This document shows positions 6,370 to 40,513 of a stretch of 50,243 bases of DNA, piece after piece. The DNA lies in NCBI GenBank assembly GCA_016209385.1, contig JACQWB010000205.1:1-50243 (forward strand). The letters are read 5' to 3'. This DNA is from Candidatus Rokuibacteriota bacterium. GTDB taxonomy: Bacteria; Methylomirabilota; Methylomirabilia; Rokubacteriales; CSP1-6. Both the position numbers and the translations under genes were made by a program. The notes beneath the pieces are model-generated. The model was given only the letters and a program-made list of their open reading frames with translations, did not search any database and had not been told where the DNA came from. Position 1 is the first letter of the stretch. Each line of letters starts with the position of its first letter.

Positions 6370-7317
6370 ATGCCGGCGCCAGACGACGCTGAGCCGAGGA
6401 TGAAGACGCCGACCCGGCGCGGGTGGCTCGTCGGGGGCATCCGCTGGGGGCTCGACCGGATGCTGTCTGTCGGCTACGGGGTCGTCTACGACTTCATCTT
6501 CGAGCGCTTCGCTCCCTACCTGAGCCTTCGGCGCGAAGTCCTGGCGCTGGTGGAAACCTCCGTCCCTGAGTCGGTTGACCGGCGCGATGTCCACGTGCTG
6601 GACGTGGGATGCGGGCCCGGCAATTTCGCCGTCAGCCTCGCCGAAGCCGGGTTCTCGGTCGTGGGCATCGACCCGTACGCCGCCCTGGTCGAACTGGCCA
6701 GGGAGAAGCGGCGGGCGAAGCACCTTCCGAACCTCGCTTTCCGTCACGCCGACCTCACGATCGGCAACACCTTCAGAGACGGGGCGTTCGACCAGGTCGT
6801 GAACATCCACTCGCTCTACCTCAATCCGACTCCAGACCGACTGCTCAGGGAAACCTACCGGGTCCTGAAGCCCGGCGGCAGCGCGGTCTTCGTGAACTTC
6901 ACGCGGCGGGTCTGGCTGCGGGCTACCTTCCGGGCGGTCAGGGCCCGCGCGGGCCTGAGCGCCGCGCTCCGGTGTCTCCTGTGGCTCCTCCCCAACTCGA
7001 TCTTCGAAGCCACGCGGACCCAGATCGGGCCCCACTACTGGGAGGAGGACGAGTTCTCGCGCAGGTTGCGCGACGCCGGCTTCACAGTGCTGGAGATGCG
7101 ACGGACATTCCTGGACGGGGCGAGCCTCCTGGCGTGGGCCCGGAAGGACAGCGACGAGCCGAGGCGCTTCGGCGCCGGCAGCTTCATCGCCTGCGCCAGC
7201 GACGAGGCGAGGCCCGAGCAGATGAGGCAGAGGCGAGGCCCGAACCGAAGGGAGGTGAGACGTTTCGTGGGGAGTGGATCACAGTGCGTTGAACTCCATG
7301 TCATCTTTGGGACGTGA
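6370..7317 (+). CDS. Class I SAM-dependent methyltransferase; C-terminus extended by family B repeat sequence
   Basis: VLDVGCGPG, GIDP, HADL, FDQVV, YRVLKPGG. Residues after ARKDS are translated repeat DNA. The start could be 6400. Confidence 0.85.
   Translation: MPAPDDAEPRMKTPTRRGWLVGGIRWGLDRMLSVGYGVVYDFIFERFAPYLSLRREVLALVETSVPESVDRRDVHVLDVGCGPGNFAVSLAEAGFSVVGIDPYAALVELAREKRRAKHLPNLAFRHADLTIGNTFRDGAFDQVVNIHSLYLNPTPDRLLRETYRVLKPGGSAVFVNFTRRVWLRATFRAVRARAGLSAALRCLLWLLPNSIFEATRTQIGPHYWEEDEFSRRLRDAGFTVLEMRRTFLDGASLLAWARKDSDEPRRFGAGSFIACASDEARPEQMRQRRGPNRREVRRFVGSGSQCVELHVIFGT
7156..7243 (+). repeat. Family B repeat, in frame in the methyltransferase 3' end
   Basis: gagccgaggcgcttcggcgccggcagcttcatcgcc...cgacgaggcgaggcccgagca...gaggcgaggccc, nearly identical to 36576-36663. 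Confidence 0.92.
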
Positions 7318-8100: not shown

Positions 8101-8646
8101 ATGAGCGCGACAGCAATCGAGGCCAACAGCGTATGCCAGGAGGACGGCGCAGCGGCCAGCGACGGGCTGGTCCGCCTCCGCCTCGGCGGAGCGATCACCG
8201 CCGCGACCGCCCCGCGGCTCCGCAAGCTGATCCGCGGGTACGCGAGGCCGGGAGATGCGCGGCTGCTCGTGGACCTGGAGGGCGTGCCGGCGATCGATGT
8301 CTGCGGGATCGCCGCGCTCCTCGACGGCTTGAAGGTGATCGAAGCCCAGCCGGGCGGTGTTATGATGTTGCGGGTGAACCCGACGGTGCGCCAGGCATTG
8401 AGAAAATCCGGAACGATCACGGCCTTCCGGTTCTGGAACGGTCAAGGGCAGTTCGAGCCGAGTGGCGTCGGCCATGCCGTGTGGCAGGCCCGCCACGAGG
8501 CGAGGCCCGAGTGGCACTTCGAGCCGAGGGGCTCCCGACGAGCCGCAGGCGTGGCAGTTCGAGCCGAGGCGCTTCGGACGAGCCGGAGGCGAGGACAGCG
8601 ACGAGGCGAGACCCGAGTAAACAGCCACGAGGCGAGGCCCAAATAG
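8101..8646 (+). CDS. STAS-domain protein (anti-sigma-factor antagonist-like); C-terminal ~65 aa are family B repeat
   Basis: VRLRLGGAI...LLVDLEGVPAIDVCGIAALL...LRVNPTVRQALRKSG fits a STAS fold. The usual phospho-Ser of DSSG reads DVCG. Confidence 0.8.
   Translation: MSATAIEANSVCQEDGAAASDGLVRLRLGGAITAATAPRLRKLIRGYARPGDARLLVDLEGVPAIDVCGIAALLDGLKVIEAQPGGVMMLRVNPTVRQALRKSGTITAFRFWNGQGQFEPSGVGHAVWQARHEARPEWHFEPRGSRRAAGVAVRAEALRTSRRRGQRRGETRVNSHEARPK
8447..8643 (+). repeat. Family B tandem array (about 3 units)
   Basis: Recurrent ttcgagccgag (3x) and cgaggcgag(g/a)ccc (3x) with different hairpin-forming cores between them. Confidence 0.9.
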
Positions 8647-33435: not shown

Positions 33436-34126
33436 GCCAGCCTTCTCCCAGACGCTCGCGACGGGCGGGACCGTTCGGCCAGTGGTTCTCCCGCAGCTGT
33501 CTCCACCCGGGGCCTCCACCGCCGACACCGAGCTCGCCCAGTCCGAGCCCGAAACTGAGGGCCTGACCGTCGTCCGCGAGGCTCACCGGATGGCCCGCGC
33601 GATCATCGCCAGGGCCAAGGCCCACGCGCGGGAGCTGGAAGCGGAGGCGCGCGAGCAAGGCTTCCGGAGCGGGAAAGAAGCGGCCCTTCAGACCGAAGGC
33701 GAGGCCCTCCGCCAGGCTGTGCAGGCCCTCTCCGCCGGCGCCGGGCGACTGGTCGCGGCCGCCACCGAGGCGGAGCGGGATCTCGTCGAGACCCTTCCCC
33801 GTCTGGCTTTTCGCCTCGCGCAGGCCATTCTCCAGACCGAGCTCACGCTGAACCCCGACGCGCTCAGCGCAGTGGTGCGGACCGCGGTGCGGGCCATCCT
33901 TCCGGCCCGGGAGGTCGTGGTCACGCTGCACCCCGACGATCGGAACGCCCTGGAACGTGCGAAATCCGCGCTGGGCGACCTCCTGGCAGGCACGGAACTC
34001 CGGCTGGAGACCCACGACAGCGTGGAGCGAGGCCACGCGCTGGTCAAGACCGAGGCGCTGATGCTCGACGCCTCCCTTGAGCGCCAGCTTCAGGAGGCCG
34101 TGCGTCTCCTCCAGGAGTCCGCATGA
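33428..34126 (+). CDS. fliH: Flagellar export protein FliH
   Basis: AREQGFRSGKE repeat region, VTLHPDD, VERGHALVKT, LDASLERQL. TTG start; lies between fliG and fliI. Confidence 0.88.
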   Translation: MSRPAFSQTLATGGTVRPVVLPQLSPPGASTADTELAQSEPETEGLTVVREAHRMARAIIARAKAHARELEAEAREQGFRSGKEAALQTEGEALRQAVQALSAGAGRLVAAATEAERDLVETLPRLAFRLAQAILQTELTLNPDALSAVVRTAVRAILPAREVVVTLHPDDRNALERAKSALGDLLAGTELRLETHDSVERGHALVKTEALMLDASLERQLQEAVRLLQESA

Positions 34127-35466
34127 AGGGCCTTGCCGCGATGGAAGCTCGCCTCGACCTGCTGACTCCCGATCGACTGGTGCGGCCCCGCGGAAAGGTC
34201 ATCCGGGTGGTGGGGCTGGTGATCGAAGCGACGGGACCTCCGGTTCCGGTGGGCGACCTCTGCCGGATCGGGGTCGCCGGCTCGCCGGAGGGCGCCCTCG
34301 CCGAAGTCGTGGGGTTCCGGGAGGGCCGCCTGCTGCTCATGCCCCTCGCGGAACTCCTCGGCGTCGCTCCCGGATCGGAGGTGCTGCCCCTGGGCCACGG
34401 GCTCAGGATCCCCGTGGGCGTCGAGCTGCTCGGACGCGTCCTCGACGGGCTGGGGCGGCCGATGGACACCTGTGGCCCCATCCGCGTCCGCACCTCAGTG
34501 ACGAATCATCGACGGCCTCCAGACCCGCTCACCCGGCGGCGAGTCGAACGCCCGCTGGCCAGCGGCCTCCGAGTCATCGATGGGCTCCTCACCGTCGGCT
34601 ACGGCCAGCGCATCGGTATCTTCGCGGGCTCGGGAGTCGGCAAGAGTGTCCTGCTTGGCATGATCGCCCGGTACGCTGCGGCCGACGTCAACGTGATCGG
34701 CTTGGTCGGCGAGCGCGGGCGTGAGGTTCGCGAGTTCATCGAAAAGGACCTGGGGCCGGAAGGGCTGGAGCGCTCCGTCGTCGTCGTTGCCACCTCCGAT
34801 GCCCCGCCCCAGATCCGCCGCCAAGCGGCCTTCACCGCCACGGCCATCGCCGAGCACTTCCGCGATGCGGGCCGGACCGTGCTCCTGATGATGGACTCGC
34901 TGACACGCTTCGCTGCGGCCCAACGCGAGGTCGGCCTCGCGGTCGGCGAACCCCCGACCACCCGCGGATACCCGCCGTCGGTGTTCGCCCTCCTCCCGAG
35001 GCTCCTGGAACGGGCCGGCACCTGCCCGGGGCCCGGGTCCATCACCGGGCTGTACACGATTCTGGTCGAAGGCGACGATCCCAACGAGCCGGTGGCCGAC
35101 GCGGTGCGCGCGATCCTCGACGGCCACATCGTCCTCTCCCGCGCCCTCGCCGCGCACGGGCACTTCCCCGCCATCGATGTCCTCGGGAGCGTGAGCCGCT
35201 GCATGATCGACATCGTGACGCCAGAGCACCAAGCCCTCGCCCAGTCCTTGCGGGCGCTCATCGCGGCTCACCGGGAGGTCGAGCCGTTGCTGGCCCTTGG
35301 CGCGTATCGAGCGGGTGGGCTTCCCACCGCCGACCGGGCGATCGCGCGCTGGGATCAAATCCTCGACTTTCTCACCCAGGCCGTGAGCGACCGGACCGCG
35401 TTTGAGGACACGCTCGCCCGGCTGGCCACTCTGGTTCGGGAGCCCGCCGCGGAGCGTCGCGCATGA
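34123..35466 (+). CDS. fliI: Flagellar export ATPase FliI
   Basis: GQRIGIFAGSGVGKS, GERGREVREF, MDSLTRF, GYPPSVF, DGHIVLSR. Confidence 0.97.
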   Translation: MKGLAAMEARLDLLTPDRLVRPRGKVIRVVGLVIEATGPPVPVGDLCRIGVAGSPEGALAEVVGFREGRLLLMPLAELLGVAPGSEVLPLGHGLRIPVGVELLGRVLDGLGRPMDTCGPIRVRTSVTNHRRPPDPLTRRRVERPLASGLRVIDGLLTVGYGQRIGIFAGSGVGKSVLLGMIARYAAADVNVIGLVGERGREVREFIEKDLGPEGLERSVVVVATSDAPPQIRRQAAFTATAIAEHFRDAGRTVLLMMDSLTRFAAAQREVGLAVGEPPTTRGYPPSVFALLPRLLERAGTCPGPGSITGLYTILVEGDDPNEPVADAVRAILDGHIVLSRALAAHGHFPAIDVLGSVSRCMIDIVTPEHQALAQSLRALIAAHREVEPLLALGAYRAGGLPTADRAIARWDQILDFLTQAVSDRTAFEDTLARLATLVREPAAERRA

Positions 35467-35897
35467 GCACGCCCTACAGCGCGCTCCTCCGGGTCAGGCG
35501 GGTCGTTGAGCGCGATGCCGAGATCGCCATCGCTCAGGCTCGCCATACCGTGGCGGCGCTCGAGGACGGCCTGGCGACCCTCGGCGTGCTCCGTCAGCGC
35601 TGGGTCGAATCGGCGTTCGCGGCAGCGCCGGGATCCACGGGCGTCCACGGCCAGATCACCGCCATCGAGGCGACCGAGACCGCCCTCGCAGCTTCGCTTG
35701 CCCGGGCGGAAGTCGCCCTGGACGAGGCCCGGGCCGTCTGGACCGAGCGTCACCGGGACCGACGGGTCGCGGAGGAACTCGAGACCCGGACCCTTGAGGA
35801 GCGACGACTTGAGGCGGAGCGTCGGGAGCAGGCCGTGACCGATGACTTGGCGGCCATCCTCCGGCTTCGCGCCACGGGGGTATGGGGTGAAGCGTAG
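35463..35897 (+). CDS. fliJ: Flagellar export protein FliJ
   Basis: Coiled-coil protein after fliI with LLRVRR...E and RREQAVTDD motifs. Confidence 0.8.
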   Translation: MSTPYSALLRVRRVVERDAEIAIAQARHTVAALEDGLATLGVLRQRWVESAFAAAPGSTGVHGQITAIEATETALAASLARAEVALDEARAVWTERHRDRRVAEELETRTLEERRLEAERREQAVTDDLAAILRLRATGVWGEA

Positions 35898-36681
35898 CCC
35901 GCGGTTGCTGCTCGGCGTCGGTACCACTGCGCTGCTCCTGGCCGCCGGCGCCGCAGGCTTCGCGTGGTCGGGGTTCGGCGTCATGATCCTCGCCAAGTTT
36001 CACGAGCCCGGTGCCCCTGTCTCGGCCACGGCGGATGACGCATCCGCACCCCAGCCGTCGCCGGCCTCCCTGCGCCAGGACGAGCTACCGCTTCAAGCGG
36101 AGGAGACCACGACCCGAGACGTCCCGAGCCATCCCACAGCCATCGGGTCTCGCCTCGTGCGACCCGCGGAACCCAGCTTCGCTGGGTGCCCCGGGTGCCC
36201 GCTGCCTCACGGCATGGCCGACGTCCCTCGGCTCGAAAATCCACTCGGGTCTCGCCTCGTGACGGGCCTGCCTCACGGCATGGCCGACGTCCCTCGGCTC
36301 GAAGTTCAACAGCCGCGCCCGGCGCTCGCTCAGGGCGCGCCCGCCCTGGCCGAGATCTACGGATCGATGCGCCCGCAGGAGGCGGCGAGCATTCTCTCCC
36401 GGGTCGAGCCAAAGGTCGCCGCACAGATTCTGACAGAGATGGCGCCCCGAAAGGCCGCCCGTGTGCTCGGGGCCATCGATCCTGCACAGGCCGCAACCCT
36501 GACGAGCGAGATCGTGAGAGGCCCGGTGGAAATTCGAGCCGAGGGGCTCCCGACGAGCCCCGGGCACGGCAGTTCGAGCCGAGGCGCTTCGGCGCCGGCA
36601 GCTTCATCGCCGGCGCCAGCGACGAGGCGAGGCCCGAGCAAATCAGACGGAGGCGAGGCCCAAAAGGAGCCTACCCCGTGA
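35887..36681 (+). CDS. MotE/YlxF/FlbB-like flagellar protein (TM + MgtE-N-like domain) carrying two family B insertions
   Basis: N-terminal TM and LAEIYGSMRPQEAASILSRV...ILTEMAPRKAARVLGAIDP. Sits in the ylxF position between fliJ and fliK. GTG start at 35887. Confidence 0.8.
   Translation: MKRSPRLLLGVGTTALLLAAGAAGFAWSGFGVMILAKFHEPGAPVSATADDASAPQPSPASLRQDELPLQAEETTTRDVPSHPTAIGSRLVRPAEPSFAGCPGCPLPHGMADVPRLENPLGSRLVTGLPHGMADVPRLEVQQPRPALAQGAPALAEIYGSMRPQEAASILSRVEPKVAAQILTEMAPRKAARVLGAIDPAQAATLTSEIVRGPVEIRAEGLPTSPGHGSSSRGASAPAASSPAPATRRGPSKSDGGEAQKEPTP
36143..36303 (-). repeat. Two family B units in reverse orientation, internal to the CDS
   Basis: tcgggtctcgcctcgt...gcctcacggcatggccgacgtccctcggctcgaa occurs twice. 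It is the reverse complement of the 8447-8511 unit type. Confidence 0.92.
36533..36663 (+). repeat. Two family B units at the 3' end of the motE-like CDS
   Basis: ttcgagccgaggggctcccgacgagcc (as at about 8518) plus the 7156-7243-type unit. Confidence 0.92.
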
Positions 36682-38408
36682 TCCCAACTCGCGTAGACCT
36701 CATGTCGCTGATGGACCCAGGACAGTTGAGCGACCCGAGCCCGAGTGCGGTTGAGCCGTCCAGAGATGGCACTTCCGAGGGGTTGCCCGACCCACACGAC
36801 TTCGCGTCCTTGCTCCTCGCCGTTCCAACGCCGGTCGAACCCGCGGCGCTTGCGACTCCGATGCCGGGCGGAGGAAGCCCCGGCGCCGAAGCCGGGTCGC
36901 AGGATCGCTCCCGGCCGCTGACGTCGGGCGTCTACCCTCCGGCACCTCAGACCAGCATGGAGGGTGCGGCTGCAGGGTGGAGTCCGCCGCGCTCCCCGGT
37001 CGGTCGGGCTCCTGCCATCGCGAGCCCAGACGGCGTCGCGGTCACCCAGGTCCTCACCGCCTTAGCCGCTGGCGACCGGGACGCGATTGAAACCCCTCCG
37101 ACACTCGGCACGCCAGCCGCTGCCGCGGCGTCTTCGACGGGCAGATCGGTCGCGCCGGTGATCGACCCGGCACTTCCGGTCGACCGGTCCCCCCGTAGCT
37201 CGGACGCTCCGGCAGCCATCGCCGGCGCCCCGCTCCCCGCTTCGACCGATCGCGGGCTCCCCGGAGGTACGCCGCCAGCGTCCCCTGATGCCGGCCAGCA
37301 CGCCATGAATACCCCTCCGACACTCGGCACGCCAGCCGCTGCCGCGGCGTCTTCGACGGGCAGATCGGTCGCGCCGGTGATCGACCCGGCACTTCCGCTC
37401 GACCGGTCCCCGCGAAGCTCGGAGGCCCCGGCGGCGGTCGCCGCCGACCCTCTCCCCGCTTGGACCGGTCGCGGAGTGCTCGGAGGCACGCCGCCCGCGT
37501 CCCCCGGCGCTGGCGAGCACGGCTCGCCGACCCCGGGTGCCGAGGCCCAAGCTCAGCGCGGCGCTCCGATCGGAGACGCCGTCTCCCGGGATCCCTCAGG
37601 CGGGTCAGCACCTGACGGCCATGCCCATTCGGGCTCTCCGATCGTGCCTCAGACTCTGATCGAAGGACGTTCGCCAGCTCAGCGTCGGCCCTCCGAACCG
37701 CCGCAGGCGATCGTGGCAGAACGGCAGGACAGAGCCCAGGAGGCGCCGGTCCAGCGGATCGCAGCGCCCGTCATCGGTTTCCCCCAAGCGGGATCGCAAC
37801 GGGTCATCCCGACCCAGGCGACTCGGCTCCCGACCGAGGAGCCTGCGCCTCGCCTCCCAACGGAGCTGGGTCTGGACTCCGTCGATGAGCGTGCCGTCCT
37901 GAGCGGCGGTACGCGCGAGATCCAGGTCACCGTCGAGGCCCCGCTCCGCGCCGGACTCCCCGACGAGGCCCACCCGCTTCAGACTCCGGTGCCGACCGCT
38001 GCCGACGCGCCCGCGCTTCCCGTGGATCAGATTGTCCGGGCCGCACGGATCCTCCGGCAGGACGGGCGCACCGAGATGCGCGTCCACCTGGAGCCGCCCA
38101 CGCTCGGCTGGGTGCGCGTGCGCGTGACGGCGAGCCGCGATGCGCTCGCCCTGAACATTGATGCCGAGCGGCCCGAGACCCAGACCCTCCTCAGCCAGGC
38201 GCTCCCGGAGCTTCAAGCGGCCCTGGCGAGTCGCGGGCTCGAGGTCGCCTCGCTGACTGTCCGCGTCGATCTCGATGTCGCCAGACCCCGGAGCGATCCG
38301 GATCGCTCTGCGGAGCGCCCCAGGCGCGCGGAGCCCCGCGATCGCCTCGGGCCGCGCTCCCGCATGACCAGCGCGGGCCCCGCGCCCCGCGTGGATCTCA
38401 CCATCTAG
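36678..38408 (+). CDS. fliK: Flagellar hook-length control protein FliK
   Basis: Long low-complexity P/A/S/T region and C-terminal MRVHLEPPTLGWVRVRV...LSQALPELQAALASRGL...VDLTI. GTG at 36678 overlaps the upstream stop. Confidence 0.9.
   Translation: MIPTRVDLMSLMDPGQLSDPSPSAVEPSRDGTSEGLPDPHDFASLLLAVPTPVEPAALATPMPGGGSPGAEAGSQDRSRPLTSGVYPPAPQTSMEGAAAGWSPPRSPVGRAPAIASPDGVAVTQVLTALAAGDRDAIETPPTLGTPAAAAASSTGRSVAPVIDPALPVDRSPRSSDAPAAIAGAPLPASTDRGLPGGTPPASPDAGQHAMNTPPTLGTPAAAAASSTGRSVAPVIDPALPLDRSPRSSEAPAAVAADPLPAWTGRGVLGGTPPASPGAGEHGSPTPGAEAQAQRGAPIGDAVSRDPSGGSAPDGHAHSGSPIVPQTLIEGRSPAQRRPSEPPQAIVAERQDRAQEAPVQRIAAPVIGFPQAGSQRVIPTQATRLPTEEPAPRLPTELGLDSVDERAVLSGGTREIQVTVEAPLRAGLPDEAHPLQTPVPTAADAPALPVDQIVRAARILRQDGRTEMRVHLEPPTLGWVRVRVTASRDALALNIDAERPETQTLLSQALPELQAALASRGLEVASLTVRVDLDVARPRSDPDRSAERPRRAEPRDRLGPRSRMTSAGPAPRVDLTI
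37092..37529 (+). repeat. 219-bp (73-codon) tandem duplication inside fliK
   Basis: Copies start at 37092 and 37311. The first 87 bp are identical; the remainder is diverged but alignable. Confidence 0.92.
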
Positions 38409-38472
38409 GAGGAGGCCCCGTGACCAAGGGCGTACTTTCCGACTTCAGCTCGACGGAACTGACGGTCCTCTC

Positions 38473-38578
38473 CGAGCGCGCACCCACGCCTTCGGCGCAC
38501 CCGGGCCTTCGGCCCGGGTACCCGCCCGGCCCGCGCAAGTGGGGGGAGGAATCGGAAGGGGGGCGTGCCCCCCTCCGA
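38473..38578. repeat. Family A composite repeat between fliK and flgD
   Basis: cgcc-TTCG-gcg and cccgggcc-TTCG-gcccggg hairpins, then cccgcgcaa-gtgggggga-ggaatcggaagggggg-cgtg-cccccctccga. Confidence 0.88.
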
Positions 38579-38596
38579 GGAATCTAGGAGGAAAAC

Positions 38597-39271
38597 ATGG
38601 CCTTGCCACTGCTCCCGATCCTGGGCGCCGTGCTCCCACCGCTGATCAACATGGTGCGGGGCGCGGCCAAAACGCGACAGGACCGCCTCGAGAAGGAGGA
38701 CTTCCTGAGGCTCCTGGTCGCCCAGCTTCGAAACCAGAACCCGCTGAACCCGCTCTCGAACGACCAGTTCGTCAACCAGTCGACCGCGTTCTCCAGCCTG
38801 GAGTCGCTCCGCGCGATTCAGGATTCGCTGGCGGCGTCCGGCGCGGGCAACTCGCTCCTCACCGGGGCCTCCGGCCTGCTGGGGCGGCAAGTGATCGGGC
38901 TGAGCGCCACATTCAGCTTCCTGGGGCGGCCCGTGGAGCTCGCGTACGCGCTTCCGGCCGACGCCTCGCAGGTGCTGGTCGAGGTCACCGACGCGAAGGG
39001 GGTGGTCGTCAAGCGGCTCAATCTGGGCGGTCAATCCGCGGGCCCGCACCTGGTCGCCTTCGACGGCCGGGGGGACGGAAGCAGCCCGCTGCCAGTCGGC
39101 AGCTACCGCTACCGGGTGCTCGCGGCAGGCCCCGGAGGCCAGCTCGCACCGGTCTCCGCGATCACCGGCCTCGTCACCGGCGTCACGCTCCAGAACGGAA
39201 TCCCCGTGGTTTCCCTCGGTCCCATCCAGGTAGCCGTCTCCGACCTCACGGCTATCGCCACACCCAACTAA
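38597..39271 (+). CDS. flgD: Flagellar hook capping protein FlgD
   Basis: LEKEDFLRLLVAQLRNQNPLNP, ASGLLGRQV, and Ig-like FDGRGDGSSPLPVGSYRYRV. Confidence 0.93.
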   Translation: MALPLLPILGAVLPPLINMVRGAAKTRQDRLEKEDFLRLLVAQLRNQNPLNPLSNDQFVNQSTAFSSLESLRAIQDSLAASGAGNSLLTGASGLLGRQVIGLSATFSFLGRPVELAYALPADASQVLVEVTDAKGVVVKRLNLGGQSAGPHLVAFDGRGDGSSPLPVGSYRYRVLAAGPGGQLAPVSAITGLVTGVTLQNGIPVVSLGPIQVAVSDLTAIATPN

Positions 39272-39286
39272 CAAGGAGGAACCCCC

Positions 39287-40513
39287 ATGAGCATCCTCTC
39301 AACCGGCGTCAGCGGCCTCCGCTCGAACCAGGCCGCCATCGACGTGATCGGCAACAACATCGCCAACATCAACACCCCGGGCTTCAAGGGCGCGCGGGCG
39401 ACCTTCGCGGACATCCTGAGCCAGACCGTCCGCGGCGAAACGATCCCGTCGGCCAACTCGGCCGGGAGCAACCCCGTGCAGGTCGGCCTCGGCGTCCAGC
39501 TCGCCGCGGTCCAGGTCGACTTCGACCAGGCCGCGATCCAGACCACCAACAACCCGACCGACCTGGCGATCCAGGGCCAGGGGCTGTTCGCCCTGAAAGA
39601 CGGCAACGGCACCCGGCACTTCACGCGCGCCGGGGCCTTCACCGTGGACGCCAACGGCACGCTCGTGGACTCGGTGAGCGGCTTCAAGGTCCAGGGCGTC
39701 AACGGCGACATCACCGTGCTGCCCGGCAAGACCATCGCTGCCACCGCCACGGCCTCGGCGCTCTTCGGCGGCAACCTGGACGCCTCCGCGGCTGACGCCA
39801 GCACCTACGTGGCCACCTTCAGCGTTCGCGATTCCCTCGGCAGCCCGCATACTCTGACCATCACCTTCACCAAGAACTTCGCCGCCGCCGCCGGCCGCTG
39901 GGACTGGGCCGTCACCGAGTCCGACGCCAACATCTCCGGCCTGAGCGGCGCCACCGGCAACGTCGTGTTCGACACCTCCGGCACCATCTCCAGCGGCGCC
40001 ACAGGCAGCCTCGGCATCACCTACGCAGCCACGGCCGGGGCCACCACGCCCCAGACGGTCACGCTGGACTTCGGCTCGGCTACCAACACCGTGCCGGTGA
40101 CCGGGGTCGCCGGAAGCTCGACCCTCGCCCTCGCGAGCCAGAACGGCAATGCCGCCGGGCAGCTCCAGTCCTTCAGCGTGGGGACGAACGGCGTCATCAC
40201 GGGCTTCTACAATAACGGCGAGAACCAGACCATCGACACCATCCAGCTCGCGCTCTTCGCCAACCCGGGCGGGCTGATCCGCGAGGGGTCCAACCTCTTC
40301 CGCGAGTCGGGGAACGCCGGTGTCCCGAACATCGGCGCCCCCAGCACCGGCGGCCGGGGCAGCCTCATCCCGGGAGGGCTCGAGCAGTCCAACGTGGATC
40401 TCGCGCAGGAGTTCACCGACCTGATCACCGCCCAGCGCGGCTTCGAGGCCAGCGCGCGCGTGCTCCGGGCCGGCGACGAGGTGCTCCAGACCATCGTCAA
40501 CATCAAGCAGTAA
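39287..40513 (+). CDS. flgE: Flagellar hook protein FlgE
   Basis: GVSGL...IDVIGNNIANINTPGFK, TDLAIQGQGLF, TRAGAF, LEQSNVDLAQEFTDLITAQRGFEASAR. Confidence 0.96.
   Translation: MSILSTGVSGLRSNQAAIDVIGNNIANINTPGFKGARATFADILSQTVRGETIPSANSAGSNPVQVGLGVQLAAVQVDFDQAAIQTTNNPTDLAIQGQGLFALKDGNGTRHFTRAGAFTVDANGTLVDSVSGFKVQGVNGDITVLPGKTIAATATASALFGGNLDASAADASTYVATFSVRDSLGSPHTLTITFTKNFAAAAGRWDWAVTESDANISGLSGATGNVVFDTSGTISSGATGSLGITYAATAGATTPQTVTLDFGSATNTVPVTGVAGSSTLALASQNGNAAGQLQSFSVGTNGVITGFYNNGENQTIDTIQLALFANPGGLIREGSNLFRESGNAGVPNIGAPSTGGRGSLIPGGLEQSNVDLAQEFTDLITAQRGFEASARVLRAGDEVLQTIVNIKQ

Follow-up and report, generated by a model that had tools for sequence, protein, structure and literature searches.

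The window analysed here is the whole of a 50,243-nt contig (JACQWB010000205.1, denoted C170) of a metagenome-assembled genome (MAG) of a Candidatus Rokuibacteriota bacterium that comprises 4.57 Mb in 310 contigs, with a GC content of 67.8% and a completeness of 95%. The flagellar operon at the site of interest has the order fliI, fliJ, a 264-aa open reading frame (ORF) and fliK (Table 1). The 264-aa ORF, a YlxF/FlbB-like gene (hereafter ylxF), carries two blocks of a dispersed repeat, denoted family B, that are read in frame with the gene and are the subject of the present analysis.

The name of the gene is based on its domain and on its position between fliJ and fliK. The product, identical to P0001 in the protein database, has the layout typical of YlxF/FlbB/MotE-type proteins, in which an MgtE_N-type domain (Pfam MgtE_N, 28.9 bits against a cut-off of 25.9) follows an N-terminal membrane anchor. 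Searches with the curated NCBIfam equivalog models (FlbB and others) yielded sub-threshold FliG/FlbB-like matches, with FlbB reaching 18 bits against a cut-off of 110 and this for the orthologue in genome G021 only; the name MotE, also used in the initial annotation, is a loose one. The frame is open throughout, without frameshift or internal stop, and the GTG start agrees with the GTG of the orthologue described below. The domain contains columns that are invariant across 22 homologues, and 21 metagenome homologues have in common the layout of anchor, linker, domain and short tail.

The two repeat blocks of ylxF and the empty-site orthologue

The presence of two repeat blocks in ylxF is confirmed. 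Block 1 lies between the anchor and the domain and consists of two family B units in reverse orientation: a canonical unit and a long variant that contains a nested hairpin module of approximately 36-46 nt (about 36160-36205), found also at five other loci. The block begins and finishes at codon boundaries, is free of stop codons and encodes IGSRLVRPAEPSFAGCPGCPLPHGMADVPRLENPLGSRLVTGLPHGMADVPRLE. Block 2 has the opposite orientation and is a compound element made up of a 40-nt half unit, a long unit and an extra tail. The two blocks thus flank the conserved domain on either side and jointly account for 300 of the 795 bp of the gene (162 + 138; 38%) and for 100 of the 264 residues. In BLAST comparisons, the inserted pieces match copies elsewhere in the contig set at 95.8-98.3% identity, namely 95.8% for the long variant of unit 1 (C212:1304-1399), 98.3% for unit 2 (C123:8014-8073; 98% to the consensus query) and 96.8% over 125 nt for block 2 (C221:29102-29226). 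Since they are 95-98% identical to other copies, the insertions are recent. In the frame of the gene, the nested module encodes AGCPGCP, a CxxC-type motif.

Table 1. Positions of the ylxF locus features, of independent contigs that cover the repeat junctions and of related sites elsewhere in the genome (window positions unless a contig is given)
Feature	Position	Strand	Details
fliI	34123-35466		named from position and 58-71% identity to the single syntenic match in five flagellated relatives, without a Pfam run
fliJ	35463-35897	+	Pfam FliJ, E 6.2e-10; stop overlaps the start region of ylxF
ylxF (YlxF/FlbB-like)	35887-36681	+	264 aa, 795 bp; GTG 35887 to TGA 36679-36681
N-terminal membrane anchor	35899-36000	+	residues ~5-38; AlphaFold helix 5-38; hydrophobic stretch after MKRSPR; 21 homologues alike
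Insertion 1 (block 1), two family B units	36142-36303	-	162 nt = 54 codons, residues 86-139
Unit 1 of block 1, long variant with nested hairpin module	36142-36240	-	nhmmer E 2.8e-7
Unit 2 of block 1, canonical 66-nt type, GGCCATGCC...GGCAGGCC hairpin core	36241-36303	-	nhmmer E 1.3e-15 (match 36243-36306)
MgtE_N/FliG_M-like five-helix domain, LAEIYG...EIVRGP	36346-36525	+	residues 154-213; 76.7% identity to L032 over 60 residues; pLDDT 91-98
Insertion 2 (block 2), compound family B element	36526-36663	+	138 nt = 46 codons, residues 214-259; nhmmer match 36530-36638
Native tail KEPTP and stop	36664-36681	+	AAGGAGCCTACCCCGTGATCCC here, AAGGAGTCAGCCCCGTGATCCC in L032
fliK (hook-length control)	36678-38408	+	Pfam Flg_hook, E 2.5e-16; GTG start overlaps the ylxF stop
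Unique sequence to block 1, Logan contig	35600-36231		
Block 1 to domain, Logan contig	36278-36474		
Domain to block 2, Logan contig	36439-36638		
Block 2 to fliK, Logan contigs	36609-36766 and 36632-36852		
Insert in ThyX-family thymidylate synthase	C244:13087-13188		Pfam Thy1, E 2.9e-37
Insert in CCA-adding/poly(A) polymerase-family enzyme	C99:2283-2392		Pfam PolyA_pol, RNA-binding and HD domains
Tails at ribosome-binding sites (examples)	C1:7922, C72:8307, C40:8751, C221:29125, C50:11699, C31:7058		

A search of a collection of 5.8 billion proteins returned, apart from the product of this gene, a single orthologue (P0002, 157 aa) and nothing else. It is encoded on a 961-nt Joint Genome Institute (JGI) contig (L032), between the end of fliJ and the start of fliK, and lacks both blocks; the ORF that follows it in L032 aligns with the N-terminus of the fliK of the window. 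The tail of the orthologue, ...EIMQVPKESAP-stop, aligns with ...EIVRGP, 46 aa and KEPTP-stop of the present protein and, because it runs straight from ...VP to KESAP-stop, block 2 is to be regarded as an internal in-frame insertion located five codons (15 nt) before the native stop. At the DNA level, ...ACGAACGAGATCATGCAGGTCCCC AAGGAGTCAGCCCCGTGATCCC of L032 corresponds to ...ACGAGCGAGATCGTGAGAGGCCCG, 138 nt and AAGGAGCCTACCCCGTGATCCC of the window. The DNA downstream of the block (AAGGAG..CCCCGTGATCCC) is conserved in L032, and the insertion leaves intact the tail K-E-x-x-P-stop and, within it, the fliK ribosome-binding site AAGGAG (36664-36669) and the GTGA stop/start overlap. The boundaries of the inserts are defined with an uncertainty of a few bases. 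On its left flank (GAGAGGCCCG), block 2 is preceded by sequence similar to the tail of the element, so that this boundary possibly lies up to approximately 9 nt further left, with the codon length unchanged; on the right side of block 1, the sequence that follows aligns with the orthologue (RPALAQGAPALAEIYG against RSAPAQTGPSLAEIYG).

A more distant orthologue, encoded in genome G021 within the gene order fliI-fliJ-ylxF-fliK-flgD, also lacks either block; the synteny of fliI, fliJ, the gene in question and fliK is common to G021 and L032, and the G021 protein consists of the anchor, a long low-complexity linker, the domain and a short tail. A scan of metagenome contigs with the alignment yielded 28 loci, all of them distant (at most 51% identity, in the domain only), none with repeats and none closer than P0002. 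A closer orthologue was sought in G011, G017 and G019 and ruled out, as ylxF was not found there. A potential target-site duplication, ACAGCC, occurs near both ends of block 1, with the copies 173 nt apart and out of register with the insert, and was judged to be due to chance; direct reading of the junctions revealed no consistent target-site duplication around the four intragenic copies of the repeat.

These results agree with most of the initial annotation, in which two reversed family B units were placed in frame between the anchor and the MgtE_N-like domain and a second, oppositely oriented block was placed on the other side of that domain. The alignment with an orthologue that it proposed for the definition of the boundaries was informative for block 2 and for the right side of block 1. 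Certain details had to be revised: block 1 is in the reported location and starts at 36142 rather than 36143, so that the encoded peptide gains one leading Ile; the repeat-derived portion, put at approximately 290 of 795 bp, measures 300 bp; and the 3′ block, although indeed close to the end of the gene, leaves the native C-terminus in place. The peptide EPRRFGAGSF, listed among those proposed for tblastn searches, comes from a frame other than that of ylxF.

Coding potential and predicted structure distinguish the blocks from the rest of the gene. Under a codon log-odds model for which 974 long ORFs of the genome served as the training set, the N-terminal part (+13) and the domain (+18.5) score best in the frame of the gene; the values for block 1 (~0) and block 2 (~-38) are those expected of non-coding DNA that is read through. 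The dN/dS ratio of the domain relative to the orthologue, 0.155 over 60 codons, indicates that the domain is under purifying selection. In an AlphaFold2 model obtained with a 22-sequence alignment, the helix of residues 5-38 and a five-helix domain at residues 151-211 are recovered, the latter with predicted local distance difference test (pLDDT) scores of 91-98 over about 150-211; both inserts have a pLDDT of ~50 and are devoid of secondary structure. According to these scores, the inserts flank the fold and do not interrupt it.

Family B repeats in the genome and in other genes

Family B units are approximately 66 nt long and modular, with the head TTCGAGCCGAGG, an interchangeable hairpin core and the tail ACGAGGCGAGGCCCGAG, and often form head-to-tail arrays, interspersed with hairpin modules of other kinds. 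There are 250 occurrences of the 12-mer head TTCGAGCCGAGG in the 4.57 Mb, and a profile hidden Markov model of the 66-nt unit detects 290 matches in 200 clusters, most of them intergenic. The closing base pair of the core type present in block 1 co-varies (G:C 21, A:T 9, C:G 8, G:T 8, other 2). In 53 of 71 cores of this type, CGTC directly precedes, on the 5′ side, the GGCC...GGCC palindrome, and other core types have CTGC, CTTC or CTCC in this position. At a permissive threshold, no Rfam family matched the region 35000-39500. The units carry no GTAG tag, their ends are direct rather than inverted (head CGAGCCGAGG, tail CGAGGCGAGG), and the Y1/RAYT transposase (PF01797) has no match in this 95%-complete genome, with control genomes positive. 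On these three grounds, family B belongs neither to the REP/REPIN elements associated with RAYT nor to MITEs. The distribution of the family among 40 relatives is patchy, G012 being rich in copies and G001 and G008 having a few each, and it is also present in several other Rokubacteria and Methylomirabilota MAGs.

The possibility that the family is built to be translatable, with unit lengths in multiples of three, was rejected given that, of 86 head-to-head spacings, only 23 are divisible by three (40 is the commonest spacing). In the absence of such a bias, survival under selection is the best reading of the intragenic copies. When the consensus unit is read by eye, five of its six frames are stop-free.

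Between co-directional genes, 57 clusters are in sense and 16 in antisense orientation, and 56 of 127 clusters have a coding start downstream of the tail, at a distance of no more than 60 nt, compared with 15 in the antisense control. In the 48 clusters listed, the tail GAGGCGAGG either adjoins a GGAGG-type site or is itself located at Shine-Dalgarno distance, 5-9 nt before ATG or GTG (examples in Table 1).

For all 200 clusters, it was asked whether an open frame spans the cluster with coding signal in the same frame on both sides. Three clusters do so: block 1 and the inserts in the genes for a ThyX-family thymidylate synthase and a CCA-adding/poly(A) polymerase-family enzyme. Invasion in frame is rare, with four insertions in three genes against approximately 200 clusters. 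ThyX is longer by 44 residues, located between ...LDEFLD and KVEHASG..., than the relatives aligned with it, which do not have this segment; in the CCA enzyme, 49 extra residues between HDVAKPxCRQV and GRIRFIGH are missing from all 28 relatives with a match, among them the same genus, in which the two halves of the match are 3 nt apart. The three sense-oriented intragenic copies are all read in one common frame (RAEGL.TS...SSSRG...). The ThyX loop has been hit twice, by different repeats: in genome G010 (L061, G010:C68 ~1677-1770), the same loop contains two GGGGGG...CCCCCCCC hairpin units of another dispersed repeat, which encode GGEAPPPSP... and GGETPPPSP... and have four other copies in G010.

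The other tblastn matches of the repeat peptides in long frames (C292, C221, C178, C47, C243 and others) were discarded on the basis of the codon score, which assigns them to 5′ leaders in frame with the downstream gene or to non-coding frames; 62 tblastn matches in the genome are due to repeats alone.

In about 11 clusters, a coding frame from upstream continues through the repeat, in most cases as a C-terminal extension. At the clusters C18:1967-2071, C18:15211-15339 and C99:7944-8047, upstream coding ORFs cross the entire cluster and stop 1-2 nt past its end, the stop codon apparently being supplied by the terminal GAGTAA or GAGTAG of the element. Within the window, a STAS-type ORF continues from ...FRFWNGQ through three family B units (8449-8618), with ~66 extra residues, and its stop TAG is separated by 2 nt from the GTG of the gene that follows; a methyltransferase ORF reads through a family B unit at 7155-7218.

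Origin and persistence of the inserts

The explanation that we favor, with a probability of about 85%, is that two separate copies of a non-coding, GC-rich hairpin repeat were inserted in a small gene of the flagellar operon without breaking its frame. The repeat is family B of the mosaic REP/BIME-like repeats of Rokubacteria, and the copies would persist because each is a multiple of three in length, is stop-free in the frame used and is located in an unstructured part of the protein, block 1 in the linker between anchor and domain and block 2 in the short tail that follows the domain. Block 2 occupies the usual position and orientation of the family, that is, sense, with the tail directly before the fliK ribosome-binding site (the order being tail, AAGGAG, 8 nt, GTG); given that this site lies within the final codons of ylxF, the native stop and its overlap with the fliK start could be retained only if the copy was in frame. 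The longer protein is presumably made and working, with the inserts as likely near-neutral passengers. The comparison with Rickettsia palindromic elements (RPEs), proposed in the initial annotation on the understanding that the family itself is unrelated, is supported by the dispersed, mostly intergenic distribution of the repeat, the in-frame inserts, the orthologue without the blocks, and the ThyX and CCA cases.

Several observations weigh against this explanation. None of the RNA sequencing runs listed holds ylxF. The 46 nt at the boundary between units 1 and 2 (36232-36277) are spanned by no error-free independent contig, so that the unit count comes from the assembly alone, even if an altered number of 66-nt units would not change the frame. 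The left boundary of block 1 is drawn from the repeat consensus alone, the linker not being alignable, and the sole close orthologue belongs to a different species, such that the insertions are not datable from it. Furthermore, no ylxF domain was found downstream of fliI in the regions fetched from the flagellated genomes G011 (L027), G017 (L031) and G019 (L028), which include fliJ in G011 and G019 and fliK in G017 and G019. The gene is patchy and dispensable in this bacterial family, and the open frame could therefore be a matter of luck under weak constraint or even after a recent functional loss.

The last consideration leads to the view that ylxF is a decaying or functionless remnant whose frame is open by chance. 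An open frame is cheap for a repeat with stop-free readings in five of six frames, two insertions would both have a length divisible by three with a probability of about 1 in 9, and the absence of the gene from three flagellated relatives and from the RNA runs would fit as well. However, both blocks keep the frame, which past the 3′ block leads exactly to the native stop with its overlap of the fliK start; the domain shows 77% identity with that of the orthologue, together with the low dN/dS and a pLDDT above 90; the gene has no frameshift or stop, and the neighbouring fliI, fliJ and fliK are intact. In addition, family B is found in frame in ThyX and the CCA enzyme, the genes for which are conserved in nearly all relatives, and we consider a remnant unlikely. 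Very improbable, indeed close to negligible, is an assembly artefact in which repeat reads from elsewhere were misjoined into the gene, a concern raised in the initial annotation. The genome is a metagenome bin of 310 contigs, 73 of the 200 repeat clusters are near contig ends, and the unbridged 46 nt would be compatible with such an error. Nevertheless, Logan contigs assembled independently for four runs, which come from three studies of groundwater and hot-spring metagenomes, enter and leave each block and cover all four junctions between unique and repeat sequence, with at least one contig without mismatches for each junction (Table 1); no Logan contig of the four runs joins the flanks without the blocks, and unit 1 is a rare long variant for which a chance misjoining is unlikely.

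It is also conceivable that the inserts have been recruited, either as new peptide segments or as an RNA structure that tunes the translation of ylxF and fliK through pairing of the blocks. In the minimum-energy fold of the mRNA (36130-36695), 41 bp are predicted between the blocks, with three inter-block helices (12, 17 and 11 bp) and the domain-coding region looped out; family B shows the strong sense bias and adjoins ribosome-binding sites; the hairpin cores co-vary, G:T pairs included, as expected for RNA; and the nested module encodes a CPGC motif. On the other side, the blocks are 95-98% identical to ordinary intergenic copies and so give no sign of adaptation after insertion, the inserts are predicted to be disordered, translation would melt the long-range pairing, and the orthologue and G021 lack either block, so that there is no conservation across species; recruitment is, all in all, quite unlikely. 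A broader proposal, speculative and with a low chance of being correct, is that family B is a sense-oriented RNA module located before ribosome-binding sites, the GAGG-rich tail of which adjoins or serves as the Shine-Dalgarno sequence. Such a module would spread beside GAGG-type sites and, where stop and start codons overlap, would be forced into the upstream ORF, with only in-frame copies surviving; pairing of the blocks could then clamp the translation of ylxF to the initiation at fliK. At the DNA level, the blocks are inverted repeats 215-460 nt apart and could promote inversion or deletion of the domain.

Comparison with known repeat systems

Insertion of palindromic repeats in frame is already well documented, and what is new here are the phylum and the repeat family; in the literature searched, no description of repeats of Rokubacteria or of family B was found. 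RPEs are described as dispersed palindromic repeats that occur between genes and in frame within conserved protein genes, with nearly half of the elements of three families located inside genes (Ogata et al., 2000, as reviewed in PMC10969869 and PMC3184786). As in the present case, tens of residues are added, the ORF is kept, orthologues lack the insert, and more than one insert per gene occurs. The hosts differ, with obligate intracellular Rickettsia on one side and free-living Rokubacteria on the other, and family B is GC-rich, with ~2% of the clusters internal to genes. Common descent of family B and the RPEs (RPE-1 to RPE-10), which are set apart by phylum and composition, is unlikely.

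The REPs with GTAG or CGTC tags are similar in that they are short stem-loops, rich in GC and for the most part extragenic, with a location between co-directional or convergent genes. Some of them reside entirely within ORFs of known proteins, where they contribute 20-82 residues as singles, dimers or clusters, with double insertions in one gene known, and a dedicated transposase is lacking for the CGTC REPs (Di Nocera et al., 2013; PMC3733652). Unlike these elements, family B units are longer (~66 nt), have a constant head and tail around interchangeable cores, and are mostly found upstream of the ribosome-binding site of the next gene and not simply downstream of stop codons. Enterobacteria and pseudomonads possess REP/BIME mosaics with RAYT transposases (PMC2817692, PMC3116915), which share with family B high copy number, imperfect palindromes combined with short modules in mosaics, compensatory changes in stems and a role as targets of IS110-type elements. 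The differences are the lack of a GTAG tag and of a detectable Y1 (RAYT) gene in the genome, and the head-to-tail rather than alternating arrangement of the units.

The closest analogue of block 2, in which the overlap of the ylxF stop and the fliK start is kept, is MIRU, characterized as intercistronic operon repeats of 40-100 bp that are co-transcribed, contain open frames and have ends overlapping the adjacent genes (Supply et al., 1997, as described in PMC3184786). MIRU is unrelated in sequence, and block 2 is read within the upstream protein and not as a separate mini-ORF. Fusions to ORFs are likewise reported for BOX, ERIC and YPAL/RU (Delihas, 2007; Croucher et al., 2011; cited in PMC3184786 and PMC10969869). 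In these cases, as with family B, small repeats extend the 3′ ends of genes or are fused internally in frame; these repeats are MITE-like with terminal inverted repeats, whereas the head and tail of family B are direct.

The present findings extend the phenomenon of repeats inside proteins to the Rokubacteria, an uncultured, free-living and GC-rich phylum of soil and groundwater. The ylxF case is unusually clean, with 100 of 264 residues contributed by two independent insertions, an orthologue that represents the empty site and inserts predicted to lie outside the fold, and with block 2 under the probable requirement to stay in frame for the sake of translational coupling with fliK. Annotators and users of structure prediction should expect repeat-derived low-complexity segments in Rokubacterial proteins, even in such enzymes as ThyX and the CCA-adding enzyme, and peptides encoded by repeats can produce false "homology" between unrelated proteins. 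The strong sense bias of family B and its position at ribosome-binding sites provide a testable lead on the role of the repeat.

Two further observations concern the genes around ylxF. In G011 (L027), fliJ is seemingly followed by a short ORF and then by flgD. The fliK gene of the window contains an in-frame tandem duplication of 219 nt (37070-37507) in its proline/alanine-rich N-terminal region, with copies of 73 codons each that are 87% identical.

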